From the NCBI GenBank assembly GCA_001825155.1, contig MHVH01000005.1, positions 168,501-232,500 of the forward strand: 64,000 bases of DNA, given 5' to 3'. Below, piece after piece: positions 339-55,041 of this stretch (within the stretch, counting starts at the first letter, position 1; every line of letters begins with the position of its first letter). The notes beneath the pieces were generated by a model. That model saw only the letters and a list, made by a program, of their open reading frames with translations. It searched no databases and was not told the DNA's origin. This DNA comes from Candidatus Zambryskibacteria bacterium RIFCSPHIGHO2_01_FULL_46_25. Lineage in GTDB: Bacteria > Patescibacteriota > Minisyncoccia > Phycocordibacterales > Zambryskibacteraceae. The translations under genes were made by a program, and so were the position numbers.

Positions 339-348
339 GTAGGATAGT

Positions 349-5422: not shown

Positions 5423-5827
5423 CGAGTGGAGGTGTAGGTTCATAAAATTCAAAGCCAAAATATTTTCTGGAGGTTGATTTTAATACAAGGGTTCTGGGAG
5501 GTCGTACTTTTTAGTATGTGCTTGCCCCACCCGCCCGTGCGCGCACAAATTCTGCTCCCCTTAATGACATTCTCCATTTTACAACACTGATTATTCCTCC
5601 TGTCTTCTTGAAAAATCCTTATTTTATGATAGTTTATCGTCAGTGGCGATTCGTTCGCCACCAGAGTGCTCAACGGGAGAAGTTTGTTTACTCAAATTAC
5701 TCACAATGACGCACTCGCAACATTCAAGTAAGAAAGAAAGTTTTACTTTCCTTCCGAAAGGTGTTATCCTTAGTAGCGAGGCTGACCCAGCGTCGGCCTC
5801 GACTCCTAAGGGTACCGGTCCAAGTGG

Positions 5828-7084: not shown

Positions 7085-7191
7085 TATAATAAACTCGCAC
7101 TCAACCGATAATAAGTTGTCTTTTTAAATGGCCGTCTCGGGTCAGCTTAAGGCAACTTAGGTTGAGTGCACCGGGGCGGCCATTTAAGTTT

Positions 7192-8721
7192 ATGAAATAC
7201 TTTTTATACGTTAGAAAATCCACCGATGTTGAAGACAAGCAAGTGCTTTCTATTGAAGCGCAGCTTTCGGAATTGAGAACTATTGCTAAACATGATGAGC
7301 TAGAAATCGTAGAGGAGTTTATAGAAAAGCGAAGTGCAAAAGTTCCAGGCAGATCAATTTTTGAAGAAATGCTCCGCCGGATTGAAAAGGACGAAGCCGA
7401 AGGAATTATTTGCTGGAAAGTAGATAGACTTTCCAGAAATCCTGTAGACAGCGGACGTATCAGTTGGATGCTTCAGCAAAACATCATTCAAAAAGTTATC
7501 ACACACGATAGAGTTTATCTCCCGCAAGACAATGTGCTTATTATGTCTGTAGAGTTCGGGATGGCTAATCAATACATCAGAGATTTGAGTGTAAATACCA
7601 AACGAGGTTTAAGAGCCAAAGCCAGACAAGGTATTTACCCCAGTGTTGCGCCCCTAGGATATTTAAATGATGTAAGGAGTAAGACGATAGTTATAGATAG
7701 GAAGAAAAGCCTTATAGTCCGTAAAGCATTTGAGATGTATGCGGAAAATAAATATAACCAAGAAGATATAGCCAACTTTCTTTTCAAGAATGGTATTCAA
7801 AGCAGATTAATAAGAAGACCAGACGCAACTGGCGGTAAGCCCTTGAAGAGAGACCAGATTAAGTGGATCTTAGAAAGCCCTTTTTATTATGGAAACTTCT
7901 ACTATGCTGGCGAAGTTTGGGAAGGAAAACACAAACCCTTAATTTCAAAAAAGCTCTGGGATAAAGTCCAAGAAGTTTTGAAATTAAGAGGAAGGGTAAA
8001 GAAAGTTAAGACAGAACCTAAAGCATTTTCCGGACTTCTTTATTGTGGAGAATGTGGCTGTTCTATTACTGCCGAAAGACAAAAGGGACATATTTATTAT
8101 CGTTGCACCAAAAAGAAAGGTAAATGCTCACAGCCCTTTACTAGAGAGGAAGTTTTAGACTCCCAACTTTCGGCAATACTAACTTCCTTAGTATTGCCGA
8201 GTGAATGGGCTAAAGAATTAAATAAGATGTTGGATAAAGACGAAGCGGACATCACTCAATCCGCGACGGCGTCCGTCCAAGCTCTGCGGTCAGATGCGAT
8301 GGAGATAAACTCCAAGCTTGCCCGCATTACAGACCTCTTTGTGGAACAAGACATTGAGCGTGGAGAATACCTGGATAGGAAGAAAGCTCTAATGTCTCAA
8401 AAGAAGTCTGTAGAGGAACAAATCCTCTTACTTGAACGAGACGCTGCTAGATGGCTCGAACCGATGCGAGAATGGCTAAAGGTGGCTTCTAGCCTAGCTG
8501 AAGCCGCGCAATCGAACGACCTCCCCTCCAGAAAATCATACCTCCAGAAAATCTTTGGCTCGAACCTCACACTCCACTCACGCGAAGCGCGCGCCGTGCC
8601 CGAAATTCCTTGGGTTTTCATCAGCCAAGCCAAATCCGAATTATCCGAATTGGGCTTTATCCCATCTATGGTGGGTCAGGTGGGAATCGAACCCACATCC
8701 GCAGAGCGGACAACATTTTAA
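7192..8721 (+). CDS. large serine recombinase (resolvase/invertase N-domain, recombinase domain, zinc ribbon); ORF reads through the inverted repeat into tRNA-Leu
   Basis: MKYFLYVRKSTDVEDKQVLSIEAQ with catalytic-Ser context; zinc ribbon CGECGCS...YYRCTKKKGKC; ORF track starts at TTG 7162, ATG at 7192 is preferred; last ~50 aa are encoded by the inverted repeat and tRNA. Confidence 0.8.
   Translation: MKYFLYVRKSTDVEDKQVLSIEAQLSELRTIAKHDELEIVEEFIEKRSAKVPGRSIFEEMLRRIEKDEAEGIICWKVDRLSRNPVDSGRISWMLQQNIIQKVITHDRVYLPQDNVLIMSVEFGMANQYIRDLSVNTKRGLRAKARQGIYPSVAPLGYLNDVRSKTIVIDRKKSLIVRKAFEMYAENKYNQEDIANFLFKNGIQSRLIRRPDATGGKPLKRDQIKWILESPFYYGNFYYAGEVWEGKHKPLISKKLWDKVQEVLKLRGRVKKVKTEPKAFSGLLYCGECGCSITAERQKGHIYYRCTKKKGKCSQPFTREEVLDSQLSAILTSLVLPSEWAKELNKMLDKDEADITQSATASVQALRSDAMEINSKLARITDLFVEQDIERGEYLDRKKALMSQKKSVEEQILLLERDAARWLEPMREWLKVASSLAEAAQSNDLPSRKSYLQKIFGSNLTLHSREARAVPEIPWVFISQAKSELSELGFIPSMVGQVGIEPTSAERTTF
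8581..8672. repeat. right copy of the perfect 92-bp inverted repeat (partner 5331-5422); extended similarity to about 8490
   Basis: Exact reverse complement of 5331-5422; lies within the recombinase 3' coding region and ends at the CCA of tRNA-Leu. Confidence 0.9.
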
Positions 8722-8754
8722 GTGTTGCGCGTATACCTATTCCGCCACTGACCC
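8669..8754 (-). tRNA. tRNA-Leu (anticodon TAA), CCA encoded
   Basis: Manual cloverleaf: acceptor GGGTCAG/CTGACCC, anticodon arm CAACA-CTTAAAA-TGTTG, long variable arm, T-arm GGGTTCGATTCCC. Confidence 0.85.
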
Positions 8755-8756
8755 AG

Positions 8757-8829
8757 AGGCGTAGAGGGGAATCGAACCCCTGCAATAACAGTTTTGCAGA
8801 CTGTCGCGTTACCACTTCGCCACTACGCC
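8757..8829 (-). tRNA. tRNA-Cys (anticodon GCA)
   Basis: Acceptor GGCGTAG/CTACGCC, anticodon loop CTGCAAA, T-arm GGGGTTCGATTCCCC. Confidence 0.8.
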
Positions 8830-8900
8830 AAAACCACTATTACCATACCATAAAATGTTGAAAAACGGTTCGATTAATGAGATACTATGCTTTGTTTGTT

Positions 8901-8973
8901 GCGCCCATAGCTCAGCTGGTAGAGCAGATCCCTCTTAAGGATAAGGTCCAAGGTTCGATCCCTTGTGGGCGCA
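8901..8973 (+). tRNA. tRNA-Lys (anticodon CTT)
   Basis: Acceptor GCGCCCA/TGGGCGC, D-arm GCTCAGCTGGTAGAGC, anticodon loop CTCTTAA, T-arm CAAGGTTCGATCCCTTG. Confidence 0.8.
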
Positions 8974-8977
8974 CAAT

Positions 8978-9059
8978 GCCGAGGTGGCGAAATTGGCAGA
9001 CGCGCCAGCTTTAGGAGCTGGTACCGCAAGGTGTGGAGGTTCAAGTCCTCTCCTCGGCA
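8978..9059 (+). tRNA. tRNA-Leu (anticodon TAG)
   Basis: Acceptor GCCGAGG/CCTCGGC, anticodon arm CCAGC-TTTAGGA-GCTGG, long variable arm, T-arm GGAGGTTCAAGTCCTCT. Confidence 0.85.
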
Positions 9060-9089
9060 CACTGCATTTATGAAGAAAGAAAAATAAAC

Positions 9090-11260: not shown

Positions 11261-11303
11261 TACAAATTTTAACAAACCTTCCACTCTAACTGAACCTCTC
11301 CCC

Positions 11304-11337
11304 CCATTATTTTCCAGCTATAGCGTAGAAATAATGG
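11304..11337. repeat. quasi-palindromic ~34-bp repeat, copy 1 (partner 11908-11941), just downstream of the PaaX-like gene
   Basis: CCATTATTTTCCAGCTATAGCGTAGAAATAATGG versus CCATTATTTTCTAGCTATAGCTTAATTATAATGG; direct repeats, each with palindromic ends CCATTAT/ATAATGG and core AGCTATAGC. Confidence 0.85.
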
Positions 11338-11344
11338 GGATGAC

Positions 11345-11911
11345 TTATATAAGGTCGAAATCCATTCTTAAATATTTATCATTCTCTATTTGATCAGCGA
11401 TGATGTAGAGCATATTCTTCCCTATCCCATAATTGGTCTTGAGGAGTCCGATGACATCTTCGCAATCATAAGGATAAACCCAGACGCTGTCCTGTAGTCT
11501 TAAAAAACCCGACGATTTGAGTATCTCCCTCACCTCGTCTCTCACTTTCTTCATCTTTTCCGGAATATCGAAAATTATGATCCTCCATTTTCTATCCCAT
11601 CTTTTTGGCTTAGGAATTCTATAATCATCCATTTCCCATTGGCGAAGAACCTTTTCTCCATCCGTTGTGAGAAAATATTTCCCACTTTTAAATTCCACCA
11701 ATCCTTTCCTTCTCAGGCGCGAAACCGCGGAGTATATAATATCTTTCTTTCTAGAAGATATTGGAATATCCAGATCAAGAAAATAATTCAGAACACTCGG
11801 CAAAAGGTCCGAGGAGCCCCTTCTGCCTCCAGAAGCTATCGAGACAAGAATCGCCTCCTGAACTTTCGATTTATTTATGGACTTCCTGGCTTTTCTTTCT
11901 AGCTCTCCCAT
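11345..11911 (-). CDS. PaaX-family regulator-like protein (N-terminal wHTH plus C-terminal Cas2-like/PaaX_C domain), paralog 1
   Basis: WRIIIFDIPEKMKKVRDEVREILKSSGFLRLQDSVWVYP matches the PaaX C-domain / Cas2-like pattern; 60-70% identical in the C-terminal half to ORF 22404-22976. Confidence 0.7.
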   Translation of the reverse strand: MGELERKARKSINKSKVQEAILVSIASGGRRGSSDLLPSVLNYFLDLDIPISSRKKDIIYSAVSRLRRKGLVEFKSGKYFLTTDGEKVLRQWEMDDYRIPKPKRWDRKWRIIIFDIPEKMKKVRDEVREILKSSGFLRLQDSVWVYPYDCEDVIGLLKTNYGIGKNMLYIIADQIENDKYLRMDFDLI

Positions 11912-11941
11912 TATTTTCTAGCTATAGCTTAATTATAATGG
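11908..11941. repeat. quasi-palindromic repeat, copy 2, overlapping the start codon and promoter region of the PaaX-like gene
   Basis: See 11304-11337. Confidence 0.85.
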
Positions 11942-41666: not shown

Positions 41667-44135
41667 TTACAGGCAAATTAGCGAAGCTATCGAGTCGCCT
41701 TCGCGGAGTTTCATGATGCGGACGCCTTGGGTTTGGCGGCCGAGGATGGGAACCTCTTTGAGGTCGACACGTACCACCTGGCTCTTCTTGGAGATAGCTA
41801 TAACCTCCTCTTCCGCGTCGGAGACAATCTGCGAGGTAATGACGGGACCTGTTTTCGGCGTGACTTTCGACGTGAGGATACCGGAGCCGCCTCTGCCTTG
41901 CGCCTTATACTCGGCGAGCTTTGTCCTCTTACCGTAGCCGTTGCCGGAGATGACCAGGAGATGTCCGGAAGCAGAATTCTTCGTTATCACGTGCGCTCCC
42001 ACAACCGCGTCATTCTTCTCGAGCTTGATGCCTCGCACTCCGCCAGCCGCGCGCCCCATCTCTCGGAGCGCCGAATCCTTGAAGCGGATGGACTGCCCTT
42101 TTCTCGTGACTATGGAAATATCGTCCCCGCTCTCCACAAGTTCCGCCGATACGAGCCTGTCTCCCGGTGCGAGACGGATGGCGATAATGCCGGATGAGCG
42201 GACATCGGTAAAAGATTTTGCCGAAACTTTCTTCACCGTGCCCATCTCGGTCACCATGAGAAGCGAGCCGGAACTTTTTGCATCCTTCGTACGCAAATCT
42301 TTCGGCATCGGCAGAATCGAAGTCACCTTCTCTTCGGCGGAAAGCGCAATGAAGTTCATTATTGACTTGCCGCGAGTGGCGCGCTTGCCTTCCGGCAGGT
42401 CATACATCTTAATCTGATAAGCCTTGCCCTTGTCGGTGAAGAAAAGAAGGTCGTCATGGGTTGATGCCGTGAGAAAATTGGTCACAAAATCCTCTTCCTT
42501 GGTATCCAGGTCAACGACGCCTATGCCTCCCCTCTTCTGCCTCTTGTATTCGTCCGGATTGGTGCGCTTGATATAGCCACCGGAAGTAAGAACCAGAGCA
42601 TTGTCTTCTTCCGCGACCAAGTCCTCGACGGAAAGGTTCTTTACCGCGCCCTTGACCACGCGGGTCCTGCGTTCGTCGCCAAACTTCTCTCGTACGGCGA
42701 TAAGTTCAGACTTGATCACTTTTAGGATTTTTGCTGGCGATGCCAGCAACTCCTTCATCTCCTGGATGAAAGCCTGCACCTCGGTGAGCTCGTCCTCAAT
42801 CTTCTTTCTCTCGAGACCGGCGAGCTTCTGCAAACGCATTTCGAGAATGGCGTTGGCCTGGATTTCCGAGAACTTAAAACGCTTGATGAGATTCTCCCGC
42901 GCATCATCTATGGTCTTCGAAGCGCGGATAATCTTTATCACCTCTTCTATATGGTCGAGCGCCTTGGATAGGCCGAGCAGAACGTGTTCACGCTCCTCCG
43001 CTTTGACAAGGTCGAAGAGTGCTCGACGCCTGACCACCATCTCTCTGTGCTTAAGGAACTCGACCAGCATGCTCTTGAGCGAGAGCGTTTGTGGCACGCC
43101 GTCCACAAGTGCCACGATGTTGAAGTGGAACGTATCCTCAAGTTGAGTGTGTTTGTAGAGAGCGTTTAAAACCTTCTGTGGCTGAGAACCGGCCTTCAAA
43201 TCGACGACAATGCGAATGTCCTTGGCGGACTCGTCGCGCATACCCTTAATACCCTCAATCTTCTTCTCTCGGTGCAGGTCGGCAATCTTCTCTATAAGAT
43301 CGGCCTTATTGACTCGATAAGGAATTTCGGTAATGACAATCTGATAATTCCCTGCCTTGTTCTCGGTAATGTCCGCAACACCTCGAGCAACCACGCCGCC
43401 GCGGCCGGTGGCGTACGCGTGGTGAATGTCTTTCTCATTGAAAATGATTCCCCCCGTCGGGAAATCCGGCCCCTTCACGAATTCCAAAAGGTCTTCCGTT
43501 GCCGCGTCCGGATTGTCGGCGAGATGCATGACGGCATCGACCACCTCAGTCAGATTGTGTGGTGGGATGTTCGTGGCCATGCCAACAGCGATGCCCAAGG
43601 TGCCGTTCAAAAGCAGGTTCGGCACGACAGTCGGCAGGACAACCGGCTCAGATTTTGTGCCGTCATAATTCGGCTTGAAGTCAACCGTCTCCTTCTCGAT
43701 ATCTCGAAGCATTTCTCCGGCGACACGACTCATCTTCGCCTCGGTATATCGATAAGCCGCCGCACTGTCACCATCGATACTGCCGAAATTTCCTTGACCT
43801 ATGACAAGCGGATAACGCATGGAGAAGTCCTGCGCCATCTTGACCATCGCTTCGTAGACAGATGAGTCACCGTGCGGGTGATACTTGCCGAGCACATCTC
43901 CAACGATAGTAGCGGACTTTCTGGTCTTTGCGGTGGCGGAGAGACCGATCTCATTCATGGCGTAGAGGATGCGGCGATGCACCGGCTTCAGCCCGTCACG
44001 TACGTCGGGCAGAGCGCGGTCGGTAATGACAGACATCGCGTAGTCGATGAAGCTCTCCTTCATCTCACTCGTAATGGCGCGGGAAACTATTCTGCTTGCC
44101 CCGAGCTCTGTCGAGGGGTCTTTTTTATTGTCCAT
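41667..44135 (-). CDS. gyrA: DNA gyrase subunit A
   Basis: [28 protein letters not shown] active-site Tyr region; C-terminal beta-pinwheel repeats; 822 aa. Confidence 0.9.
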
Positions 44136-44460
44136 AGGTATTTAAAGTATTGTCGCGCATTTCCTCGAAGCCCGATTCGAGCTCGATTGACTCGATGCCC
44201 TCCTTCAAGCCACCGAAGCTATCCTTCAAACCCTCGAAACTCGACTCAATGCCACGGAGAAAGGAGCCGAAGGGGTTGGCCGATTCAACGGATTTGTTGA
44301 CGCTCGCTGCTTGCCCTGAGCTTGTCGAAGGGTTACCACCAAAATTGACAGTAGCCCACACAGCGAAAATAAGAAGAGTGAATCCGCCCGAAGCAAGAAA
44401 GGCGAAACGCTTCTTGTGACTTGGAGACCTTTTATGCAGAGTTGAGAGATATGTTCTCAT
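44125..44460 (-). CDS. hypothetical small membrane protein (overlaps the gyrA start)
   Basis: 111-aa ORF with one TM helix; translationally coupled to gyrA. Confidence 0.35.
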
Positions 44461-44550
44461 GTTGCGATACTAATCTACTAATTCATGCGAATTATACTAA
44501 TGGTATTCCTATTCGTTTCATTCGTATACATTCGCATATTGGTATCGCTG

Positions 44551-45102
44551 TCATTCTTCTTTAAGCACCACTATCTCCCCTTCTTTGCCTTCCAAGTCCT
44601 TCTTCTTCACTACGAATTTGTCGATGGGCACCGCTTTGGTCCCGCCTTCTTTCACAAACTGGTCGAGCTCCGCTTTATTGTAATGCATCGGGATGACAAC
44701 GGAAGGTTCGAGTGATACGGCAAGCTTATAGGCCTTCGCCGGGTCGAGCGTGCCGACAGGTATAAATAGGATATCAATATCTTCAAGCGCTTCAAGCGTC
44801 TCAGCCTTGAGCTCCGCATTGGCAAGCGCGCCAAGGAAACAGAGCTTCATGCCCTCGAACGTGATGAGATAAATAGTATTAATCCTATCTTTCGCCTCAG
44901 AGAGAAATCCTTTTATAAAAATATCTTTGATCTCGTACTCGCCCGGACCGTCGATGATAAAACCAGACTTCTCGGCGGTTTCGCTCCGTCCGGTGCTGAA
45001 AAGAGTGATATCCGCGCTCGTTTTCGCCTGCGGATTGAGAGCAATGGTCAGATTGCCTTGGGAAATCTTGAAACTATCCACCCCTTGGTAGCTGATAATC
45101 AT
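44551..45102 (-). CDS. MBL-fold metallo-hydrolase (Lactamase_B_3-like)
   Basis: 183 aa; ...LFIPVGTLD...VVIPMHY... resembles UlaG/YtnP-like beta-lactamase-fold proteins. Confidence 0.55.
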   Translation of the reverse strand: MIISYQGVDSFKISQGNLTIALNPQAKTSADITLFSTGRSETAEKSGFIIDGPGEYEIKDIFIKGFLSEAKDRINTIYLITFEGMKLCFLGALANAELKAETLEALEDIDILFIPVGTLDPAKAYKLAVSLEPSVVIPMHYNKAELDQFVKEGGTKAVPIDKFVVKKKDLEGKEGEIVVLKEE

Positions 45103-45251
45103 AGTGAATATTCTAGCACAAAAGAGCCTTTTCCGCCATAGTCTTAGCCCTTAAATTTCATCTCCAAAAACACTTGACAAAAAGACTGAAGTATGCTAAG
45201 CTTAATACAGATAGGCACACGACCGTGCTGAGTCGGTTCCAGGAGGAACAG

Positions 45252-45551
45252 ATGGAAAAACAGACGAAGAAGATGGCGGCGACACAGGTGGAGATCGATG
45301 CGAAGAAGGCCGAGCACGATGAGGTCCTTTTGTGCATCGACCAGGTCGCGAAATTCAAGCCGCAGAGCGCACCGTCCAAGCAGAAGCAGGACGAAATTCT
45401 CAGCCAGCTGCAGAACAAGTGCGGCACGATCGGCAAGAATTTCGACGAGCTTCGAACCCGCCTCGAGCTCGAAACGCTCGACATGCTCGCGGGCGCCGAC
45501 ACTGACTTCGTCGAGGAAACGCCGGCGGACGCCCTCCGCAACGCCAGCTAG
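45252..45551 (+). CDS. hypothetical protein in a locally GC-rich segment
   Basis: RBS AGGAGG 8 nt upstream of ATG 45252; followed by a clean terminator; overlapping ORFs on both strands look like GC-rich artefacts. Confidence 0.35.
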   Translation: MEKQTKKMAATQVEIDAKKAEHDEVLLCIDQVAKFKPQSAPSKQKQDEILSQLQNKCGTIGKNFDELRTRLELETLDMLAGADTDFVEETPADALRNAS

Positions 45552-45584
45552 GCACCGCACCCGGCGGCTCCGGGTAACGACTCA

Positions 45585-45614
45585 GGGCGGGCTCTCACGA
45601 GCCCGCCCTTTTAC
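45585..45614 (+). terminator. rho-independent terminator
   Basis: GGGCGGGCTCtcacGAGCCCGCCC followed by TTTTAC. Confidence 0.6.
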
Positions 45615-45726
45615 ATTCCTCCACTTTGTGTTATCTTAATACGGTTCTTTATTAGTCCCGTTTCTGTTATCCCTGCCCTTACGGCAATCACTCAACAGAG
45701 GGCAGGACCGGAGGCGGCATCATCTA

Positions 45727-46929
45727 ATGTCATTATTTTCATTTGGTAAAAAAGCCCCGACGCTCGAAGAGGTCGGGGTCCCGACCCAGCCTGAAGCTGG
45801 CGTCGGGAAAGAGATTAAAAAAGTAAAAAGGGTTAAAAAAACCAAGGAAGCTCCTGAAGCTAACCAAGCTAACGAAGCTATTTCAAGCTACCTTGAGAAG
45901 ATTCCCACTCCCCCGGCGATAGACGACCTCGTCGAAGGGTCGGTCATCTCTATAGACAAGGGCGCGGTCTACGTGGACCTGCCGCCCTTTGGCACCGGTA
46001 TTATCTACGGGCGCGAATTCCAGAATGCCAGAGACATCATCAAGAAGATTAATGTCGGCGACATTGTCGCGGGCAAGGTCGTGGGTGTGGGTGGCAAAGA
46101 GGGTTATATCGAAATTTCGCTCAAGGAAGCTCGCCAGGCCATCATATGGAACGAAGCCGAGGACGCTATTCGCGAGAAGCGCACATTCGAACTCCCTATC
46201 ACAGATGCCAACAAGGGCGGGCTCATCATAAACTGGCAGGGCATTACCGGATTCCTCCCCGCTTCCCAACTCAAGCCCGAGCATTATCCTCGCATCTCCG
46301 ACGGCGACAAAGACAAGATTCTCGATGAATTGAAGAAGCTCGTGGGCGAGAAGCTCTCCGTCACCATCATCGGCGTCAATCCGAAGGAGGGTAAACTTAT
46401 CTTCTCCGAGAAATCGCCGGAAACCAAAGATAAGGAAAATATTGTTTCCCGCTACGCGCTGGGTGACGAGCTTACCGGCGAAGTGACCGGTCTTGTGGAC
46501 TTCGGAGTGTTTGTGAAGATTGAGGAAGGACTCGAGGGCTTGGTCCACATTTCCGAAATTGATTGGGGCCTCGTTGAGAATCCGAAAACTATGTTCAAGA
46601 TCGGCGAGAAGGTGAAGGTGAAAGTCATCGAGATAAAGGATGGCAAAATTTCCCTCTCCATCAAGGCCTTGAAAGAGAATCCTTGGCGTGAAGCGGAGAA
46701 GAAATACAAGAAGGATGACGTCGTCGAAGGTGTCATCATCAAGTTCAACAAGCACGGCGCTCTCGCCTCTATCGAGGAAGGTGTTGCCGGTCTCATTCAC
46801 ATCTCAGAATTCGGCTCCGAGGAGAAACTGCGTGAGAAACTCGAAATGGGCAAGGTGTATTCCTTCAAGATTACCCTCTTCGACCCCAAGGAACAGAAGA
46901 TGGCGCTCTCATACGTAGAGAAGAAATAA
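45727..46929 (+). CDS. rpsA: S1 RNA-binding domain protein (ribosomal protein S1-like, about 4 S1 repeats)
   Basis: Repeated S1 motifs (GSVISIDKGAVYVDL..., GEVTGLVDFGVFVKIEEGLEGLVHISE..., VEGVIIKFNKHGALASIEEGVAGLIHISE). Confidence 0.7.
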   Translation: MSLFSFGKKAPTLEEVGVPTQPEAGVGKEIKKVKRVKKTKEAPEANQANEAISSYLEKIPTPPAIDDLVEGSVISIDKGAVYVDLPPFGTGIIYGREFQNARDIIKKINVGDIVAGKVVGVGGKEGYIEISLKEARQAIIWNEAEDAIREKRTFELPITDANKGGLIINWQGITGFLPASQLKPEHYPRISDGDKDKILDELKKLVGEKLSVTIIGVNPKEGKLIFSEKSPETKDKENIVSRYALGDELTGEVTGLVDFGVFVKIEEGLEGLVHISEIDWGLVENPKTMFKIGEKVKVKVIEIKDGKISLSIKALKENPWREAEKKYKKDDVVEGVIIKFNKHGALASIEEGVAGLIHISEFGSEEKLREKLEMGKVYSFKITLFDPKEQKMALSYVEKK

Positions 46930-46954
46930 ATTCGAAGTTAGGATTTAGGATTTT

Positions 46955-46974
46955 CACTATGATATATCATAGTG
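46955..46974. repeat. perfect 20-bp palindrome CACTATGATATATCATAGTG (second copy in trxB at 54666-54685)
   Basis: Read directly; preceded by TTAGGATTTAGGATTTT, related to the tsaD TTAGGATT repeats. Confidence 0.9.
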
Positions 46975-47063
46975 CCTTCATACATCGATTTTCTGCTATA
47001 GCCTGAGATAGATGTATACGTTATCTTTTCGCTGCAGCGAAATTATAACGTATGTGCAAATTT

Positions 47064-47621
47064 TTAGGTATTGTTTTTTAATTCCAGCTGATAAATTTGG
47101 GTATCGTAACCGCGGAGTTCTTCGTCGGCGCGGGAGAGACCCAGCATTTCGAGTTCTTTGAACAATTCTTCGCGAACTTTTTCCGGATTGGCGTCGTCCG
47201 GGCAAAGCTTCTCAAGTTCGACGTAAGTGCCGAGTTTTTCCACGTCATCAAGACAGATTTCATAAATGCCGAGCTTGCCCTTGCGGCGAATTTTCCTCAC
47301 CTCGATCATCGGCACCCAGCCTAAAGTTTCCAAAATTTTGCTGGTTTCTTCCGCATCATCAATTTCGGTTTCGTATTCAAGATTATCTCCCTCATTTGAG
47401 CGCTGTTGCTTGAGATTCAACTGAATTTTATCCTTCATTCTTCTAATACGCATAATAATGTCACCCTCTTTAGCCTGACTAAACTCATTGGCAGAGCCCT
47501 TGAGCGCGTAAATAACGTCATGTTGACTTATCGGCTTAGACAGTTCGCGTCCCTTCTCTCCGAGCTTTCGCTCAAGCTCTGTGAAATTACCCGCTTTCAG
47601 TTTTATTTCTATTTCTCTCAT
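47064..47621 (-). CDS. CYTH-domain protein (class IV adenylate cyclase / triphosphatase family)
   Basis: MREIEIKLK...start with ExExK and later acidic motifs typical of CYTH. Confidence 0.55.
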   Translation of the reverse strand: MREIEIKLKAGNFTELERKLGEKGRELSKPISQHDVIYALKGSANEFSQAKEGDIIMRIRRMKDKIQLNLKQQRSNEGDNLEYETEIDDAEETSKILETLGWVPMIEVRKIRRKGKLGIYEICLDDVEKLGTYVELEKLCPDDANPEKVREELFKELEMLGLSRADEELRGYDTQIYQLELKNNT

Positions 47622-47622
47622 C

Positions 47623-48168
47623 TCATTTATTAAACTCCGTCATGGCGGTGCTTAGGCCGGAGTCTTTGATAGTTTCGACTGCGGTTACGACACTTTTGAA
47701 AACTTTTTTGAGTTTTTCCATTTCCGGCTTTTTGAAGTCAGACAAAATATGTTTCTCGACTGCTTTCTCCCCCTTCGGCTTCTTGAGTTTGCCGCTCGGA
47801 GTAGCGGGCGAAGTGCCTATACGTATGCGAATAAATGCCTCGGTTTTGAGCGCCTTTATAATCGACTCCAGTCCGCGGTGTCCGCCCGAACCGCGGTTGT
47901 AAGAAATTTTCATCACTCCTAGAGGCAAATCGAGGTCATCATAAATCACAATAAGTTTCTCCGCAGTTTTCTTGTTCTTCACAACCTTCGCCACAGCCTT
48001 GCCTGTGACATTCATAAAGGTGCTCGGGGTAAAAATTCGGAAGCCCGGCTTCTTTTGTGGAAGCCGAGCTTCCACAGTTTGCAAAAAATCCGCCGCCATG
48101 CGTCCCGTGTTGTGCCGAGTGCGCGCGTATTCGTCTCCAGGATTTCCCAAGCCTATAACAATATACAT
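47623..48168 (-). CDS. pth: peptidyl-tRNA hydrolase
   Basis: MYIVIGLGNPGDEYARTRHNTG is the canonical Pth N-terminus. Confidence 0.9.
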   Translation of the reverse strand: MYIVIGLGNPGDEYARTRHNTGRMAADFLQTVEARLPQKKPGFRIFTPSTFMNVTGKAVAKVVKNKKTAEKLIVIYDDLDLPLGVMKISYNRGSGGHRGLESIIKALKTEAFIRIRIGTSPATPSGKLKKPKGEKAVEKHILSDFKKPEMEKLKKVFKSVVTAVETIKDSGLSTAMTEFNK

Positions 48169-48215
48169 ACTGCTATTGTGTCAAATAAGAATAGATAATA
48201 CAATCTCTGCAAACA

Positions 48216-48824
48216 ATGCCTCCTGAGAATTTACAACCCGCCCTTCGACAAGCTCAGGGCAAGCCAACCGAAAATTTCTGGAAAGAACTTTTCAAGCTCG
48301 TTTTGCTCGCGGTCGTCATAGTTATCCCCTTCCGACTTTATGTCGCTCAGCCCTTCATCGTCGATGGGCTTTCCATGTATCCGACCTTCGACAACGGACA
48401 CTATCTCATCATTGACGAAGTCTCGTATCGCTTCCGAGAGCCAGCGCGCGGCGATGTACTTGTTTTTAAGGCACCACCAAACCCAGAAAAGTATTACATC
48501 AAGCGCCTCATAGGCTTTCCCGGCGAGACGATAATGATAAACGATGGTCAAGTAACGATAACCAATAAAGAAAATCCGGACGGATTCAAATTGGCCGAGC
48601 CTTATGTCAAATTTCCCAAGGACGAGGTCCTGACCATAATTCTCGAAGAGAACGAGTACTTCGTCATGGGTGACAACCGCGCTTCGAGCTCGGATTCCCG
48701 CGTCTGGGGGCCGTTGCCGAAGGAAAATATTATAGGCCGTCCGGTCATGCGATTCTTTCCTCCGGCGCTATTCCCCGGAGACATCTCGCACTTTGAGGCA
48801 AGGCTTAACGCAAACGACGAGTGA
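48216..48824 (+). CDS. lepB: signal peptidase I
   Basis: Catalytic Ser GLSMYPTF, Lys box YIKRLIG, GDNRASSSDSRVWG. Confidence 0.85.
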   Translation: MPPENLQPALRQAQGKPTENFWKELFKLVLLAVVIVIPFRLYVAQPFIVDGLSMYPTFDNGHYLIIDEVSYRFREPARGDVLVFKAPPNPEKYYIKRLIGFPGETIMINDGQVTITNKENPDGFKLAEPYVKFPKDEVLTIILEENEYFVMGDNRASSSDSRVWGPLPKENIIGRPVMRFFPPALFPGDISHFEARLNANDE

Positions 48825-49960
48825 TGCTCAAAGAAGCGCGAAAACCTGTTTGGAGCTTAAACGAATTCGACAAGCAGATTATCACCGCGACATATTTCGG
48901 CTTCATGCCCATCACCGCCCCGAGAATCACGGAGGAAGACATCGCCGCGTCCAAGCACTGCGCGGCACTGCCGTATTATGACGCCGCGGAGAAATCGGCT
49001 CTCATCCGAAGCTACATAAACAACAACTTCGCTTCGCTCCCGCACCCGCTCGCGCTGGTGTATAAGAAAAAGAAGCCCGAAAGCTATTCTCTCCACTTCA
49101 TAGGAGCCCAGGGCGGCATAGCGGAGGCAACACTCATCCGCGCCGCCCTCTCCATGCTTGCGGAAGAAGGCTACAAGAACCTCTCCGTCCACATAAATTC
49201 CATCGGCGACAAAGATTCCATATGTGTTTATGAGCGAGAACTCGCAAGCTACGCGAGGAAATTCGGTAGCTCTCTCAGCGCGCCTCTCAAGGAAAGTTTG
49301 AGAGAGGACATCTGGAACCTTTTCCGGCGCGATGAGGAAGAGATGATACAGCTGCGCGCCGCCGCTCCATCATCTGTCGCCTTCCTCTCCTCGCAAAGCC
49401 GGCTCCATTTCAAAGAAGTGCTTGAGTATCTTGAATCTCTTGCCATAGATTTCCGCCTCGCTCCGGAGCTTGTGGGCGAAAAGAATCATTGCTCGCACGC
49501 CATCTTCGCTATCAAAAATTTGGTCGACGAAGTGGAGACGACTCTTGCCGTGGGCTACCGCTATTCCCGCCTGGCAAAAAGATTGGGGCTTCGCAAAGAA
49601 ATTCCCATGGCCGGAGTAACCATCTTCTCCGCCGCCAAGAATGCCGCGAAAAAAATCTACAAGCAACTGCCCAAGCCGAAATTCTATCTCGTCCAACTAG
49701 GGCAAGTGGCAAAGATGAAAACTCTTTCGCTTATTGAGCTTTTACGCTTGCACCATATCCCCGTTCACCATTTCCTCGGCAAGGATAAACTCGCCGCCCA
49801 GCTCTCGAGCGCCGAATCTCTGCAAGTCTCTTACCTCATCATCATCGGGCACAAAGAGGCTCTCGACGGCACCGCCACCATTAGGAATGTTGCCACCCGC
49901 GCCCAGGATACCATCCCTCTCGAATTGCTCCCGCAGTATTTGAAGAAGATTAGCCTTTAA
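48821..49960 (+). CDS. HisRS/HisZ-like class II aaRS paralog (catalytic motifs degenerate)
   Basis: Class II HisRS-like fold with C-terminal anticodon-binding-like domain (YLVQLG...YLIIIGHKEALDGTATIRN); motif 2/3 are not clearly conserved. Confidence 0.4.
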   Translation: MMLKEARKPVWSLNEFDKQIITATYFGFMPITAPRITEEDIAASKHCAALPYYDAAEKSALIRSYINNNFASLPHPLALVYKKKKPESYSLHFIGAQGGIAEATLIRAALSMLAEEGYKNLSVHINSIGDKDSICVYERELASYARKFGSSLSAPLKESLREDIWNLFRRDEEEMIQLRAAAPSSVAFLSSQSRLHFKEVLEYLESLAIDFRLAPELVGEKNHCSHAIFAIKNLVDEVETTLAVGYRYSRLAKRLGLRKEIPMAGVTIFSAAKNAAKKIYKQLPKPKFYLVQLGQVAKMKTLSLIELLRLHHIPVHHFLGKDKLAAQLSSAESLQVSYLIIIGHKEALDGTATIRNVATRAQDTIPLELLPQYLKKISL

Positions 49961-50139
49961 CTTTAAGGGAAATGCCGACGATTTTGTTTGACAATAATAA
50001 CAATATTTGTTATTATTCGGTTGGGCTGAGAGCCAGTTCCAGCAGAGGCGCGCCACTTCAAACTGCTGTCACGTCGAGCAGGCTCTCGCCCACTTGCAAG
50101 TATGGGAACCTTGCACGCTTGGGTGCCGCATGGCGAGTG

Positions 50140-50900
50140 GCACCTTTTTTGTTTGCTTGTGTTCTGCAACACCGAGTGTTGCAAACAATTATAAAGTATC
50201 AATATATTCCAGTTCTTCTTTAAGGAGTTTTGCTGGACTAGTCTTCACGAATTGATGATATTCTTCTTTATCTTTAAATCTATCGGTAAGAATAGCGGGA
50301 AGTAGTAAATTACCCCACCGATTTTCATTTACCATATCTTGATAGCTAGACCAGTAATAGTGATTTTCTTTACTCAGCCATTTTGTAATTTCTCTGGGAT
50401 TTCTGTGAATATAGGTAGATAGGTGAAGAAGTTGCCTATCGTCTCCGACATGTACTGCTTTGTAAGGACCCTGAAATACGTGTCCAGACTTATCGTATTT
50501 GGTGTTGTAGTATTTGCTATAAGCATTCAACACTCTTTGCATGTAATTTGAAATTCCACCTTCTTTCAATTCCTTGATTATCAGATGGAAATGATTTGGC
50601 ATTATGCAAAAAGCAATCAATTCGATTGTGCGCGTATCAATCACCTCTTGAACATAATCCTGCAACACCGAGTGTTGCATAAAATCTCCCATAAGTTTGC
50701 TAATATTCTTAATAATGGTCGGGGATTGGAGATACAAGATTAAGAAAAGGAATCTGTAATAATCTCGGGTGTCATGAAAGATTATTTGTTTGTTAATTCC
50801 CCTATTGAAAAGATGGTAATGTTCTCCAGGCGCAATAATGATATTTCTCATAGAGCCTATTATACATGCAACACTCGGTGTTGCAGGTTGTAGACAATTT
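50140..50900. mobile_element. IS200/IS605-like RAYT (REP-associated tyrosine transposase) unit with flanking REP hairpins
   Basis: Hairpin TGCAACACCGAGTGTTGCA at 50158-50186 and 50866-50890, with a third copy inside the ORF at 50649-50676. Confidence 0.7.
50189..50851 (-). CDS. tnpA: Y1 HUH transposase (RAYT / IS200-like TnpA)
   Basis: HYHLFNRG...; HUH motif MPNHFHLII; catalytic Tyr region NAYSKYYN. Confidence 0.75.
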   Translation of the reverse strand: MRNIIIAPGEHYHLFNRGINKQIIFHDTRDYYRFLFLILYLQSPTIIKNISKLMGDFMQHSVLQDYVQEVIDTRTIELIAFCIMPNHFHLIIKELKEGGISNYMQRVLNAYSKYYNTKYDKSGHVFQGPYKAVHVGDDRQLLHLSTYIHRNPREITKWLSKENHYYWSSYQDMVNENRWGNLLLPAILTDRFKDKEEYHQFVKTSPAKLLKEELEYIDTL

Positions 50901-50928
50901 ATATGGCTTGTGTTAAATTAACGCCCTA

Positions 50929-51189
50929 ATGCAATCAATGGTAAATATAGAGGTGGAGAAAGGTCCGAACGAGAACAACCTCGGCGTTTTGAGGCGCTTC
51001 ACCAAGAGAGTCCAGGCCGCGGGCATCCTACCCCGCGTACGAAGCAAGCGCTACTCCGAGCGCCACAAGTCCGAAAATGTCAAACGCGCCAAGACCTTGG
51101 AATATTTGAAGAAGAAGGAAGTTACGGCGGAACTGGTAAAGCAAGGCAAGATCGTCGAGGTTTCCAAGTTTGCTCGAAAGCGAAGATAG
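50929..51189 (+). CDS. rpsU: 30S ribosomal protein S21
   Basis: VEKGPNENNLGVLRRFTKRVQAAGILPRVRSKRYSE...KRAK is the bS21 pattern. Confidence 0.8.
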   Translation: MQSMVNIEVEKGPNENNLGVLRRFTKRVQAAGILPRVRSKRYSERHKSENVKRAKTLEYLKKKEVTAELVKQGKIVEVSKFARKRR

Positions 51190-51194
51190 AACAG

Positions 51195-51228
51195 GAATTT
51201 TCAATTTTCAATTTGCAATTTTCAATCA
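51195..51228. repeat. AATTTTC tandem repeat block between rpsU and ybeY (same family as 41298-41332)
   Basis: GAATTTTCAATTTTCAATTTGCAATTTTCAATCAA. Confidence 0.8.
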
Positions 51229-51569
51229 AGAATCAGACACGCAAGCGGACTCCCAGGGAAGATTTTGAAATTTTGAAGGGTAGAATACTCGGCAAAAAGT
51301 ACGAGCTCTCGCTTGTTTTCTGTGGAGACATGCTCTCGCGCCGCCTCAATCGCGCTTATCGCGGTAAAGACAAACCAACCAACGTTCTGAGTTTCCCTCT
51401 GTCGGAAAATTCCGGAGAAATTTTCATCAACCTTTCGAGAATGGAACCTTTTGGAGCGCGAAAACTCTTTATCCACGGTCTTTTGCATTTGAATGGAATG
51501 GAACATGGGGCTAGAATGAAGCAAGCTGAAAAAAAATGGCTCGTCAAATCACAGTCGGCATCGACATAG
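51213..51569 (+). CDS. ybeY: endoribonuclease YbeY
   Basis: HGLLHLNGMEH zinc-binding motif; the annotated start lies inside the repeat block, so the true start may be downstream. Confidence 0.75.
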   Translation: MQFSIKNQTRKRTPREDFEILKGRILGKKYELSLVFCGDMLSRRLNRAYRGKDKPTNVLSFPLSENSGEIFINLSRMEPFGARKLFIHGLLHLNGMEHGARMKQAEKKWLVKSQSAST

Positions 51570-52738
51570 GAACATCCCAAGTCAAGGCAATCATTGCCGA
51601 AGGCGCTCTTGAGCAAGGACACTTCTCCCCCCGCATCATCGGCGCCGCAACCGCAGAATCGAAAGGTCTTGAGCGCGGCTATATCCTGAACGCGGAGGAA
51701 GCGGCCGAGAGCGTTCGCTTGGCCGTCAACCGCGCGGAAAAAACGGCCGGAGTAAGGGTCAGAAGGGCTTACGTCTCTTTCGGTGGCATCGGCCTCGGAA
51801 GCATCAAGGCGGAAGGCTCTGTCGCTATCTCACGCGCCGATATGGAGATAACAGAGAGGGACTTGGCGCAGGTACTTGAAGCGGCGGAGCAATCAATCCC
51901 CGCCGCAAGCATTCTCAATAAGCGCATCATCAATACCATCCCCATCGAATACAAGATAGACGGCAAACCCGTCTGGGGCGACGCACTGGGTCTCAAGGCG
52001 CAGAAACTCGAGGTCAAGGCTCTTTTCATAACCTGTCTTGAACACCACTTGGCGGAACTTATAAAGACGGTGGAAACCGCGGGACTCGAGGTAGTGGATG
52101 TCGTAGCCGCGCCGGTGGCGGCAAGCTTCGTAACCGTCTCCAAGAAGGAACGCCGCGTCGGATGCCTGCTCGCGGACATTGGCGCGGAAACTCTTTCTCT
52201 CATCGTCTTTGAAAACAACAACCCAACCTCTCTTGAAGTCTTTCCCATCGGCGGCAATGATATTACCAATGACATCGCTCTTGGACTCAAGCTTCCGCTC
52301 GAGGACGCCGAGAATGTGAAGCAAGGAGGCATCGCCCGCACCCCTTATTCGAAGAAGAAGCTCGAAGAAATCGTTTTAGCGCGCCTCGGCGACTGCTTCG
52401 ATCTCGTCGAAACCCATTTGAAAAAGATTGGCAGAGACTCGCTCCTCCCTGCTGGAGTACTACTTACTGGCGGTAGCGCATCCGTTTCCAGTGTCAAGAC
52501 CTTTGCGGAAGAATTCTTAGGCCTACCCTCCCGCATTGCCGAAATTCATTTCGGCACGAATGAGAAGAATCGCATGAGAGACAATGTTTGGGCAACAGCG
52601 TGCGGCTTGGCACTCTTGGGCTTCAACGCAGGAGAGAAAAACGGATTCTCCGGTTCGAGCAGAAGCGGACTTTTGCCCGGAAGTGGCAGAGGCTTGGCGC
52701 AAAAAATTTCCCGCCTCATTTCTCAAATCCTGCCGTAA
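51536..52738 (+). CDS. ftsA: cell division protein FtsA
   Basis: MARQITVGIDIGTSQVKAII actin-fold N-terminus; lies immediately upstream of ftsZ. Confidence 0.85.
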   Translation: MARQITVGIDIGTSQVKAIIAEGALEQGHFSPRIIGAATAESKGLERGYILNAEEAAESVRLAVNRAEKTAGVRVRRAYVSFGGIGLGSIKAEGSVAISRADMEITERDLAQVLEAAEQSIPAASILNKRIINTIPIEYKIDGKPVWGDALGLKAQKLEVKALFITCLEHHLAELIKTVETAGLEVVDVVAAPVAASFVTVSKKERRVGCLLADIGAETLSLIVFENNNPTSLEVFPIGGNDITNDIALGLKLPLEDAENVKQGGIARTPYSKKKLEEIVLARLGDCFDLVETHLKKIGRDSLLPAGVLLTGGSASVSSVKTFAEEFLGLPSRIAEIHFGTNEKNRMRDNVWATACGLALLGFNAGEKNGFSGSSRSGLLPGSGRGLAQKISRLISQILP

Positions 52739-52824
52739 ATCACAACATATTTATAGTATTTTGTCCATTGCTTCCCAAATCCCCCGCCTTTGGGTAAGAT
52801 AGGCGCATCCATAAATTTAAACGC

Positions 52825-53994
52825 ATGCCACAAATCAAACCAGAAGTGGAATCTTTCGCCAGAATCAAGGTTATCGGTATAGGAGGCTCCGGCAAGAATA
52901 CGGTTAATCACATGATTAATTCTAAGGTCAAGGGGGTCGAATTTATCTGTATAAACACCGACGCGCAAGACCTCCATAATTCGCTCGCCAAGAAGAGGAT
53001 ACACATAGGTAAGAACCTTACCCGAGGTCTCGGCACCGGCATGAATCCGGAGCTCGGCAAGCGAGCCGTTGAAGAAACCAAGGAAGAGGTCCAGGAATCC
53101 ATCAAGGGTGGTGACATGGTCTTCATCACCGGTGGCATGGGCGGTGGCACTGCCTCTGGAGCAGCGCCAGTCGTCGCTCGTACGGCCAAGGAGAATGGCT
53201 GTCTTACAGTCGCTGTCGTCACCAAGCCATTCTTCTTCGAAGGTCAGCAGAGGATGAAGATTGCGGAAGTGGCAATAGACGACCTCAAACAGTCCGTTGA
53301 CGCGCTTATCGTTATCCCAAACGACCGCCTACTCCAAACCGTGGAGAAGAACATCACCGCCAAGAACGCCTTCGCCATCTGCGACAATATCCTCAAGGAA
53401 GCCGTCGAGGGCATCTCGGACCTCATCACCACCCCGGGCATTATCAATATAGACTTCGCTGACATACGCTCGGTGCTCGAGAATTCCGGCGCGGCGCTCA
53501 TGGGTATCGGCTCAGCCTCAGGCGAGAATCGAGCCATTGAGGCCGCGAAAGCCGCCATTTCTTCGCCTCTGCTTGAAATCTCCATCAATGGCGCGAAGGG
53601 CGTGCTCTTCTCCATCGCCGGCGGCGACGACTTGACTATGTTTGAAATTCAGGACGCAGCCAAGGTTATCACCGAGTCCGTGGACCCGAACGCGAAGATT
53701 ATCTTCGGTACCGTCCGAGACGAGAAGTTGAAAAAAGGCGAACTCAAGATTACCGTCATCGCTTCTAACTTCCCAGAGAACAACGTAAGGAAGGCCGGCT
53801 CCCTTTTCCAGAACTTCGGCACCGATGAAGAGCGAGGCAAGGGTAAGATATTCAACGCCATGCCGATACAGGAGAAATCTGCCAACAAGGAACAGGACAT
53901 AAAGAAGCCAGCTCCCCCCATTTCCGCTGCCGAAAACAATGACGACGACTGGAGCGCCGTACCGGCATTCCTGCGACGCAGCAAACTCAAATAA
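52825..53994 (+). CDS. ftsZ: cell division protein FtsZ
   Basis: GIGGSGKN and GGGTASGAAPVVA tubulin signature. Confidence 0.9.
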   Translation: MPQIKPEVESFARIKVIGIGGSGKNTVNHMINSKVKGVEFICINTDAQDLHNSLAKKRIHIGKNLTRGLGTGMNPELGKRAVEETKEEVQESIKGGDMVFITGGMGGGTASGAAPVVARTAKENGCLTVAVVTKPFFFEGQQRMKIAEVAIDDLKQSVDALIVIPNDRLLQTVEKNITAKNAFAICDNILKEAVEGISDLITTPGIINIDFADIRSVLENSGAALMGIGSASGENRAIEAAKAAISSPLLEISINGAKGVLFSIAGGDDLTMFEIQDAAKVITESVDPNAKIIFGTVRDEKLKKGELKITVIASNFPENNVRKAGSLFQNFGTDEERGKGKIFNAMPIQEKSANKEQDIKKPAPPISAAENNDDDWSAVPAFLRRSKLK

Positions 53995-54030
53995 GCGACT
54001 CGGGAAGATTTCTGATAGAATTTCTTTTGT

Positions 54031-54945
54031 ATGCATGATTTAACAATCATCGGCGGAGGGCCGGCTGGCGTTGCCGCGGGTGTTTATGCGGCACGTAAGC
54101 GCCTTAAAACAATTTTAATAACAGAATCTTTCGGCGGGCAGTCCACCGAGTCTGCCGGCATAGAGAATTGGATTGGCACGGTCAATATTCTCGGGCCTGA
54201 TTTCGGCAAGATGCTTGAGGACCATCTCCGCTCCGTAGCCGGCGAGTTTGTTGAGATAAAGTTGAATAAGGTTAATAAATTGAATAAGTCGGATAAGGGA
54301 TTTGAGATTGGTACGGAAGACGGGCAATCTTATCTATCGAAAACCGTTCTCATTACCACTGGCTCGACGAGAAGGAGGCTTGATATTCCCGGCGCCAAGG
54401 AATTCGAGAACAAGGGCATCTCCTACTGCGCCTCCTGCGACGGTCCTATCTTCGCCGGGAGCCACGTGGCAGTTATAGGTGGCGGCAATGCCGGATTCGA
54501 GACGGCGGCCCAGCTTCTAAATTATGCCGCCTCCGTTACCCTCATCAACAGAAGCGACACCTTCAAGGCCGATGAGATGACAGTTGAGAAAGTGCTTTCG
54601 CACCCCAATATGAGAGTAATCAAGAACGCGGTGCCCAAGGAGATTAAGGGAGATAAGTTTGTAAGCACTATGATATATCATAGTGGCAATACAGATCACG
54701 AGCTTAAGGTTACCGGCATATTCGTCGAGATAGGCCTCGTACCCACCACAAGCTTCGCCAAAGAACTTCTGCCTCTGAATAAAATTGGACAAATAGAAAT
54801 CGACCCCAAGACGCAGAGAACCGCCGTAGCCGGAGTGTGGGCGGCTGGAGATTCGACAGACGGTCTCTACCATCAGAACAACATTGCCGCCGGCGACGCG
54901 GTAAAAGCGCTCGAGGACATCTACCTCCATTTGCACGCGAAATAA
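54031..54945 (+). CDS. trxB: thioredoxin-disulfide reductase
   Basis: FAD motif IIGGGPAG, redox-active CASCDG, NADPH motif GGGNAG; carries two in-frame repeat inserts. Confidence 0.85.
   Translation: MHDLTIIGGGPAGVAAGVYAARKRLKTILITESFGGQSTESAGIENWIGTVNILGPDFGKMLEDHLRSVAGEFVEIKLNKVNKLNKSDKGFEIGTEDGQSYLSKTVLITTGSTRRRLDIPGAKEFENKGISYCASCDGPIFAGSHVAVIGGGNAGFETAAQLLNYAASVTLINRSDTFKADEMTVEKVLSHPNMRVIKNAVPKEIKGDKFVSTMIYHSGNTDHELKVTGIFVEIGLVPTTSFAKELLPLNKIGQIEIDPKTQRTAVAGVWAAGDSTDGLYHQNNIAAGDAVKALEDIYLHLHAK
54253..54298. repeat. GATAAGTY-type octamer tandem repeat inserted in frame in trxB (shared 14-mer ATAAGTCGGATAAG with the valS 3' region)
   Basis: GAGATAAAGTTGAATAAGGTTAATAAATTGAATAAGTCGGATAAGGG encodes EIKLNKVNKLNKSDKG. 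Confidence 0.8.
54666..54685. repeat. perfect 20-bp palindrome CACTATGATATATCATAGTG inserted in frame in trxB (encodes STMIYHSG)
   Basis: Identical to 46955-46974. Confidence 0.9.
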
Positions 54946-54965
54946 ACGGGTATAACTTACGTTTG

Positions 54966-55041
54966 TGGTGCGCGGTGCAGAACTCGAATCTGCGACCCTC
55001 CCCACGTCAAGGGGATGCTCTACCAACTGAGCTAACCGCGC
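54966..55041 (-). tRNA. tRNA-Val (anticodon GAC), CCA encoded
   Basis: GCGCGGTTAGCTCAGTTGGTAGAGCATCCCCTTGACGTGGGGAGGGTCGCAGATTCGAGTTCTGCACCGCGCACCA. Confidence 0.85.

Follow-up and report, generated by a model that had tools for sequence, protein, structure and literature searches.

Known members of the TrpR family are metabolite-sensing repressors, and the operators of both TrpR and HisR (also named YerC) are 20-bp palindromes, with the consensus TGTAcTnGTnnACnAgTACA for TrpR and cacTTTAnnnnnnTAAAgtg for HisR and with frequent autoregulation of the regulator gene (PMC9413887). Gene control is barely known in the Patescibacteria, or Candidate Phyla Radiation (CPR), a large share of bacterial diversity that is almost entirely uncultured and has very few regulators. 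Here we describe a stretch of 64,000 nucleotides (64 kb; the window) from Candidatus Zambryskibacteria bacterium RIFCSPHIGHO2_01_FULL_46_25 (assembly GCA_001825155.1, contig MHVH01000005.1, positions 168,501 to 232,500), in which the perfect 20-bp palindrome CACTATGATATATCATAGTG occurs once between two genes and once in frame within a gene for a thioredoxin reductase-like (TrxB-like) protein. Judged from sequence comparison, the two copies are likely to be orphan operators of a TrpR/YerC-like regulator of about 140 amino acids (PF01371, YerC/HisR-like) that is spread across the Patescibacteria. The two copies and the genes that hold or border them are as follows.

45727-46929, plus strand: S1 gene, RpsA-like, an open reading frame with four S1 RNA-binding domains (Pfam PF00575, four stretches)
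46955-46974, no strand assigned: copy 1 of CACTATGATATATCATAGTG, exact match, in the convergent spacer 3' of the S1-domain gene; putative orphan TrpR-like operator
47064-47621, minus strand: CYTH-domain gene (Pfam PF01928), convergent with the S1 gene and bounding the spacer of copy 1; locus L106 has the same gene order
54031-54945, plus strand: gene for a TrxB/AhpF-like FAD-dependent pyridine nucleotide-disulphide oxidoreductase of 304 amino acids (Pfam PF07992, E = 2.4e-43), host of copy 2
54666-54685, no strand assigned: copy 2 of CACTATGATATATCATAGTG, exact match, in frame within the TrxB-like gene, codons ACT ATG ATA TAT CAT AGT, read as TMIYHS

Both exact matches, reported at these positions in an earlier prediction made from the letters alone (the original prediction), were confirmed, and they are the only two in the window; no further match was found there with up to three mismatches allowed. 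The earlier judgement that such a palindrome is improbable by chance also holds, with no match in 100 dinucleotide-preserving shuffles of the window and a chance expectation of 0. Copy 1 starts 25 nt past the stop codon of the S1-domain gene, downstream of this rpsA-like gene as had been noted, in the spacer toward the convergent CYTH gene. Copy 2 sits about 280 bp ahead of the end of trxB, in a gene whose product has homologs named FAD-dependent oxidoreductase or peroxiredoxin subunit F in Zambryskibacteria and other Patescibacteria. Together with the gene content, the names of the best homologs assign the window to the Patescibacteria, near Zambryskibacteria. One reading frame of CACTATGATATATCATAGTG contains TGA and another TAG, and the single open frame, ACT ATG ATA TAT CAT AGT, is identical on both strands, so that any intragenic copy has to read TMIYHS.

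When the 18-bp core of the palindrome was scanned in public genomes, with one genome per species, it gave 131 exact copies in 105 stretches (loci L001-L105). Nearly all are from Patescibacteria and represent many classes, including Giovannoni-, Zambryski-, Woese-, Kaiser-, Adler-, Yanofsky- and Saccharibacteria as well as Paceibacterota, with several copies per genome (about 2-10, and often 4-10). The bases bordering the core are Y and R in coding and intergenic copies alike, and no flanking sequence is conserved beyond them; because these borders are kept in both contexts, the unit is 20 bp long (Y-ACTATG-ATATAT-CATAGT-R). Its information content is far above what a genome of about 1 Mb would need. 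Roughly one quarter to one third of the copies lie within open reading frames, among them genes for MiaA, where nine species share one position, and for MurD-like, glycosyltransferase-like and TrxB-like proteins. The genes adjoining orphan sites, picked out by eye, form a heterogeneous set that includes PurD, DHFR, PyrF, RuvA, UvrB, MGMT and epimerases. The few matches to the 18-mer outside the CPR are in Firmicutes (Ruminococcus, Erysipelotrichaceae; L051, L066, L097, L004 and L043), and three of them share one position in a homologous protein of 370-390 amino acids (..ESTMIYHSPE..).

The copies are closely tied to a single gene family. Pairs of copies 446-503 bp apart (586 bp in one case) enclose a gene of about 140 codons whose product matches the Pfam family Trp_repressor (PF01371). 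L001-L105 contain 23 TrpR-family genes; in 22 of them an exact copy lies a short way 5' of the start codon, 3' of the stop codon, or both, and 14 of these genes are flanked on both sides. Since these loci had been chosen by the palindrome, the association was retested on 80 metagenome loci (510 kb) selected by the TrpR-like protein only. In this second sample, perfect 20-bp palindromes built as N7-ATATAT-N7 bracket nearly every TrpR-like gene. Perfect 20-bp palindromes with an ATATAT centre number 97 in the 510 kb, where 0.02-0.06 would be expected. Exactly 5 nt often separate the upstream site from the ATG, and in most of the protein-selected loci both sides of the gene carry the same variant. 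About 20 arm variants occur across lineages, ACTATG being the commonest, followed by GACTTG, ACTATC, ATTATG, ACTTTC, CCTACC and others. Additional sites on a contig use the variant of that contig, and orphan sites match the local TrpR-like gene in L122, L170, L179, L180, L146 and L154. Assembly LCQJ01 contains both a syntenic site downstream of its S1 gene (L008) and a TrpR-like gene with the canonical palindrome on either side (L047). Arrays of the palindrome were also seen at or near TrpR-like genes, with six copies in 1.4 kb (L003:3817-5172), three in 110 bp (L067:1542-1667) and four around the gene (L180:5962-6592); these arrays resemble iterated binding sites.

The variation of the arms follows that of the protein. 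Counted among non-identical proteins, sites with G at operator position 7 are accompanied in 43 of 43 cases by Asp in the helix-turn-helix (HTH) motif 'VGxDTI', and sites with C at this position by Asn, Pro, Thr, Ala, Ser or Gly in place of Asp in 18 of 19 (Fisher p = 1e-14, phylogeny-uncorrected). Of the 19 cases with G at operator position 2, 16 have an Arg in the first HTH helix; with A at this position, the Arg is absent in 40 of 40 (p = 9e-12, likewise phylogeny-uncorrected). A third trend links G at operator position 3 with Arg or Lys at 'x'. The class with C at position 7 comprises seven arm types and six replacement residues, and this diversity argues for repeated independent changes. 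The co-varying Arg of the first HTH helix aligns with Arg69 of Escherichia coli TrpR, which we take to contact the outer G of the trp operator. These correlations indicate that the CPR TrpR-like protein would read the palindrome through its HTH. The alternative offered in the original prediction, that the palindrome is a protein-binding site, is strongly supported, as the palindrome brackets TrpR-family genes across the Patescibacteria and its arms co-vary with HTH residues. For the CPR this provides a concrete and testable candidate regulator-site pair with a readable recognition code of two, possibly three, residue-base pairs.

The solved structures closest to the CPR protein are YerC/HisR-like (3FRW, 3KOR and 3G1C), and E. 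coli TrpR comes next. Like the HisR (YerC) regulon of Firmicutes, the CPR system combines a small PF01371 HTH protein with a 20-bp palindrome that has CAC...GTG ends (cacTTTAnnnnnnTAAAgtg compared with CACTATGATATATCATAGTG), a lineage-specific consensus and a site ahead of the regulator's own gene. Unlike HisR, the CPR protein has about 40 additional amino acids and carries a conserved basic tail at its C terminus (...RLKKKYP.HFLLFP); its gene has a site on either side; the ATATAT centre of these sites, free in HisR, is invariant; and the candidate targets are not his genes, the sites lying in or near trxB, miaA, murD and genes for DNA repair and nucleotide metabolism. With E. coli TrpR the CPR protein would share a dimeric HTH, a dyad of 18-20 bp (here a perfect 20-bp palindrome of the family-wide form N7-ATATAT-N7) and autoregulation. 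The Arg69 of the 'SQRE' segment aligned with the co-varying Arg is a further likeness, as is the TrpR motif TGTAcT.., which also has G at position 2. The half-site sequence and the spacing differ from those of TrpR, and the sequence similarity is weak (E about 1e-4). To our knowledge, CPR organisms generally lack tryptophan biosynthesis. A likeness of the palindrome to NrdR or Fur boxes, presumably of the CACTAT..ATAGTG or ATGAT..ATCAT flavour, was set aside because the TrpR-like association and the co-variation account for the motif directly. In the literature we found no description of this sequence or of a CPR TrpR regulon. The kind of operator is known for the TrpR family; the CPR subfamily, with sites embedded in coding sequence and co-evolving with the regulator, appears to be new, and its two-sided bracketing of the regulator gene, its conservation across the superphylum and its embedded, co-evolving sites are unusual traits.

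The copy within trxB had been described as adding the peptide STMIYHSG to the protein. The in-frame reading stands (..AGC ACT ATG ATA TAT CAT AGT GGC.., read S-T-M-I-Y-H-S-G, with flanks ..C and G..), but nothing is added: the 120 best TrxB-like homologs, mostly of 301-308 amino acids (range 301-315), show no gap at this position. Here the family follows x-[LM]-[IV]-Y-x-x, with TMIYHS itself also read in nine other homologs. Because the homologs align ungapped, the palindrome occupies six pre-existing trxB codons, which refutes an insertion; the site appears instead to have been written into existing codons, where it would have arisen by point substitutions and is maintained by selection at the DNA level. 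The original prediction had taken an uninterrupted TrxB alignment together with a lack of further copies to speak against it; the alignment is indeed uninterrupted, and many further copies exist.

Several observations bear on the conservation of the two copies as DNA. The TrxB-like orthologs have about 70% nucleotide identity and use the same codon for only 41-46% of their conserved residues, yet all 20 bases of the palindrome are identical in the trxB orthologs of L093, L106, L108, L109 and L110. Chance or coding constraint as the cause of the palindrome was rejected, given that the expected number of matches is 0 and that the five degenerate codons are identical in these five orthologs, with same-codon use of only about 45% elsewhere in the gene. 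The codons bordering the site change their amino acid (S, H, T or N before it; G, E or D after it) yet keep the ..C and G.. of the flanks. Two orthologs read AMIYHS through a symmetric double change, to CGCTATGATATATCATAGCG in L191 (CGCTATG..CATAGCG) and to TGCTATGATATATCATAGCA in L192 (TGCTATG..CATAGCA), and this variant is also the operator variant at the TrpR-like genes of L122, L125 and L126. In the ortholog of L193, which reads ALIYQS, the site has decayed. In the syntenic spacers of L106 and L008, copy 1 keeps every base, whereas the two hairpins that follow it differ by compensating substitutions. These comparisons indicate that selection acts on the DNA of both window copies.

An embedded site that looks equivalent to that of trxB is carried by MiaA. 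Among 120 MiaA homologs, which are ungapped at the embedded site, 33 have an xxIYxx hexapeptide that a perfect N6-ATATAT-N6 could encode, all at one position, against a background of 1.15e-4 per window for palindrome-compatible hexapeptides elsewhere in MiaA proteins. Seventeen types occur, including TMIYHS, AMIYHS, SMIYHT, GMIYHT, DLIYQV, SLIYQT, TLIYQS, TFIYES and GLIYQS, and many match operator variants at TrpR-like genes. In TrxB-like proteins and MiaA, putative binding sites are thus held in coding sequence strongly enough to dictate the amino acids of the host protein (xxIYxx). Repressor sites inside open reading frames are known from lacO2 in lacZ and from the PurR operator in purB, and can act by looping or by blocking elongation as a roadblock. 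The putative CPR sites resemble these in lying within an open reading frame; they differ in being kept across deep lineages, in switching variant with the specificity of the regulator and in imposing xxIYxx on the protein. In L019, L024, L046 and L098, the miaA gene with the embedded operator adjoins a parB-like gene (MSQF.N.AIFW.EVDKI.PNPFQPR..). A RelA/SpoT-like gene also adjoins miaA in L024 and L098, and L024 has a second palindrome across parB.

Under the operator reading, the TrpR/YerC-like protein would dimerise and use its helix-turn-helix to bind the 20-bp dyad, in the manner of TrpR and HisR on their own palindromes. The sites of the regulator's own gene, a few bases ahead of the start and just past the stop, suggest autoregulation and insulation. 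With 5 nt between the upstream site and the ATG, a Shine-Dalgarno leader would not fit, so that the transcript is probably leaderless or nearly so and its promoter overlapped by the operator; the protein would repress its own gene through this operator, and the site past the stop codon would insulate the gene. Both window copies would belong to the same regulon, with the regulator gene elsewhere in the genome. Tentatively, the bound protein might act at the end of the S1 gene and within trxB as a roadblock or insulator rather than as a promoter operator; a terminator role at both sites would be a further form of the same idea.

Two further features of the window bear on the other explanations considered.

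46980-47017 and 47016-47053 (span 46980-47053), no strand assigned: two hairpins directly 3' of copy 1 (inverted repeats I6 and I7)
50189-50851, minus strand: IS200/RAYT-like Y1 transposase gene (PF01797)

Rickettsia palindromic elements and REP elements, degenerate repeats of 35-150 bp, insert and so lengthen the host protein; REPs flank a Y1 transposase gene. Like these, the palindrome is a repeat found in intergenic and coding DNA, and the original prediction proposed a mobile mini-palindrome, which would be of the MITE, REP or Rickettsia-palindromic-element kind and would have entered both the spacer and, keeping the frame, trxB. Such an element would fit the two identical window copies, the many copies in related genomes, the excess of exact over degenerate copies and the presence of a Y1 (IS200/RAYT-like) transposase gene between the two copies. 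We nevertheless regard it as almost certainly wrong: TrxB homologs with and without the palindrome do not differ in length, and the same is true of MiaA; the same codons are occupied in trxB orthologs of about 70% nucleotide identity, which argues for ancient vertical inheritance; variants change symmetrically and follow HTH residues; the flanks have no sequence in common beyond the 20-mer and no target duplication; and the Y1 gene carries a different hairpin of its own, TGCAACAC-CGA-GTGTTGCA. Orphan operators would also explain a class of perfect palindromes in CPR bins that might be taken for mobile elements or for artefacts of assembly. Another explanation invokes structure rather than a protein site, with a nucleic-acid hairpin acting alone as RNA terminator, stabiliser of mRNA ends or DNA cruciform. 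Copies just past the stop codons of the S1 gene and of TrpR-like genes, arms that co-vary around a constant centre, complementary flanks that extend the intergenic copies and the good folding of the copy 1 spacer (z = -3.5 for the RNA fold of 46925-47065) would all be expected of such a hairpin. The stem is weak and AT-rich, however, with 3 G-C among 8 pairs, -7.8 kcal/mol and no T-run after it, which falls short of an intrinsic terminator; a scan found no canonical promoter or terminator at copy 1, and an Rfam scan of 44000-57000 returned only one tRNA and a sub-threshold sRNA match elsewhere. Nor would a free hairpin require one arm variant at most sites of a contig or genome, or the correlation with HTH residues; coding copies are kept at the cost of amino-acid changes, and the extensions are as common at divergent promoters as at convergent ends. 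We therefore hold a hairpin acting alone to be improbable.

A number of points weigh against the two copies being orphan operators of the TrpR-like protein, and some of them favour a role in marking DNA. No TrpR-like gene was found in the 64-kb window by tblastn, so that the regulator in the source genome is assumed from relatives. Overlap with a promoter is probable at the TrpR-like genes themselves and is not seen for the two window copies, which are intragenic or in a convergent spacer with no sigma-70-like promoter near either; a classical operator role is not evident there. Across the loci, about 90 copies are intergenic, 19 of them between convergent genes; exact copies outnumber those with 1-2 mismatches, and the motif shows far less degeneracy than operators usually do; its ATATAT centre never changes; and the co-variation figures are uncorrected for phylogeny. 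In addition, intergenic copies carry complementary extensions that have no fixed sequence and average 3.5 bp, where 0.33 would be expected, with a maximum of 20 bp, and for which dimer binding to duplex DNA gives no account. These extensions are equally frequent at divergent promoters and convergent gene ends (L001-L105, L111-L190; for example L058:5945-6002, L032:7677-7726 and L122:8828-8863), and they could reflect selection for hairpin extrusion or palindrome growth by template switching. That the core was inserted into pre-existing terminator loops is an unlikely origin for the complementary flanks, as the extension is contiguous with the core, no leftover loop bases are present and divergent promoters show it just as often. 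A short near-perfect palindrome conserved across phyla, often intragenic, present in few copies per genome and bound by an HTH protein also describes parS, the site of ParB, and the CPR palindrome shares its near-perfect form, its low copy number and its frequent intragenic position. A parS/ParB-like role in organising the chromosome, in which the palindrome is loaded or marked for segregation, nucleoid structure or the control of replication instead of gene-specific regulation, would suit the very high information and very low degeneracy for about 2-10 sites per genome, the many sites that are intragenic or in convergent spacers, their conservation within housekeeping genes, the several miaA sites that adjoin parB and the arrays of 3-6 copies in L003 and L067. 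The associated protein, however, is TrpR-like and not ParB, and no partner CTPase, ATPase or other NTPase was seen; known members of the family are metabolite-sensing repressors, and gene bracketing with a site 5 nt ahead of the ATG resembles autoregulation. A strictly parS-like role is accordingly unlikely in our estimate. Because of the excess information, the arbitrary extensions and the arrays, a parS-like or global-roadblock reading stays in play, and in its broader form, a DNA-marking system across the superphylum, with few near-perfect sites in essential genes (trxB, miaA, murD) and at gene ends that co-evolve with the specificity of the protein and serve as global roadblock, insulator or parS-like organiser rather than as an ordinary metabolite-responsive repressor system, we find it doubtful but worth naming. 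If true, the variable extensions would point to extruded hairpins or to template-switch growth of palindromes.

The orphan-operator reading leaves the other structured elements near copy 1 outside the operator. The hairpins at 46980-47053, which show compensating changes in L106 and L008, are probably structural or terminator elements of the convergent spacer. Hairpins centred on GCTATAGC occur at 46980-47017, 11302-11339 and 11907-11941 (..TTCTGCTATAGCCTGAGA.., ..TTCCAGCTATAGCGTAGAA.. and ..TTCTAGCTATAGCTTAAT..), and may represent a second structured element or terminator type of the lineage.

A link between the palindrome and the IS200/RAYT-like gene was considered and rejected, as the hairpin that flanks this gene is another one and as the syntenic loci L106 and L192 lack the gene. 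The hairpin lies just past the stop codon of the Y1 gene (50165-50183) and, inverted, just ahead of its start (50867-50885), and a third copy stands in frame within the gene (50661-50679, read ..MQHSVLQ..). Given the absence of the gene from L106 and L192, it is this hairpin, among the palindromes of the window, that truly looks mobile.

Just 3' of trxB and a tRNA-Val gene is an IS1595-family (ISXO2-like DDE) transposase gene (55957-56775), preceded by a 27-nt imperfect inverted repeat, I1 (55748-55802). The final 20 nt of tRNA-Ser(cga) (TCGAATCTCACCGCTTCCGC, 58801-58820) are repeated exactly 130 bp downstream, at 58931-58950, in what looks like a remnant attachment-site duplication. Between 37717 and 39184, four tandem paralogous small genes with a common repeat segment (..GCCCCAGAAGAAGAC..; repeat families D2 and D4) probably encode a family of small secreted or membrane proteins. 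The G+C content of positions 1-8000 is 0.34-0.40, compared with 0.45-0.54 in the remainder of the window, and this part may be acquired DNA that ends at the tRNA cluster at 8669-9060.

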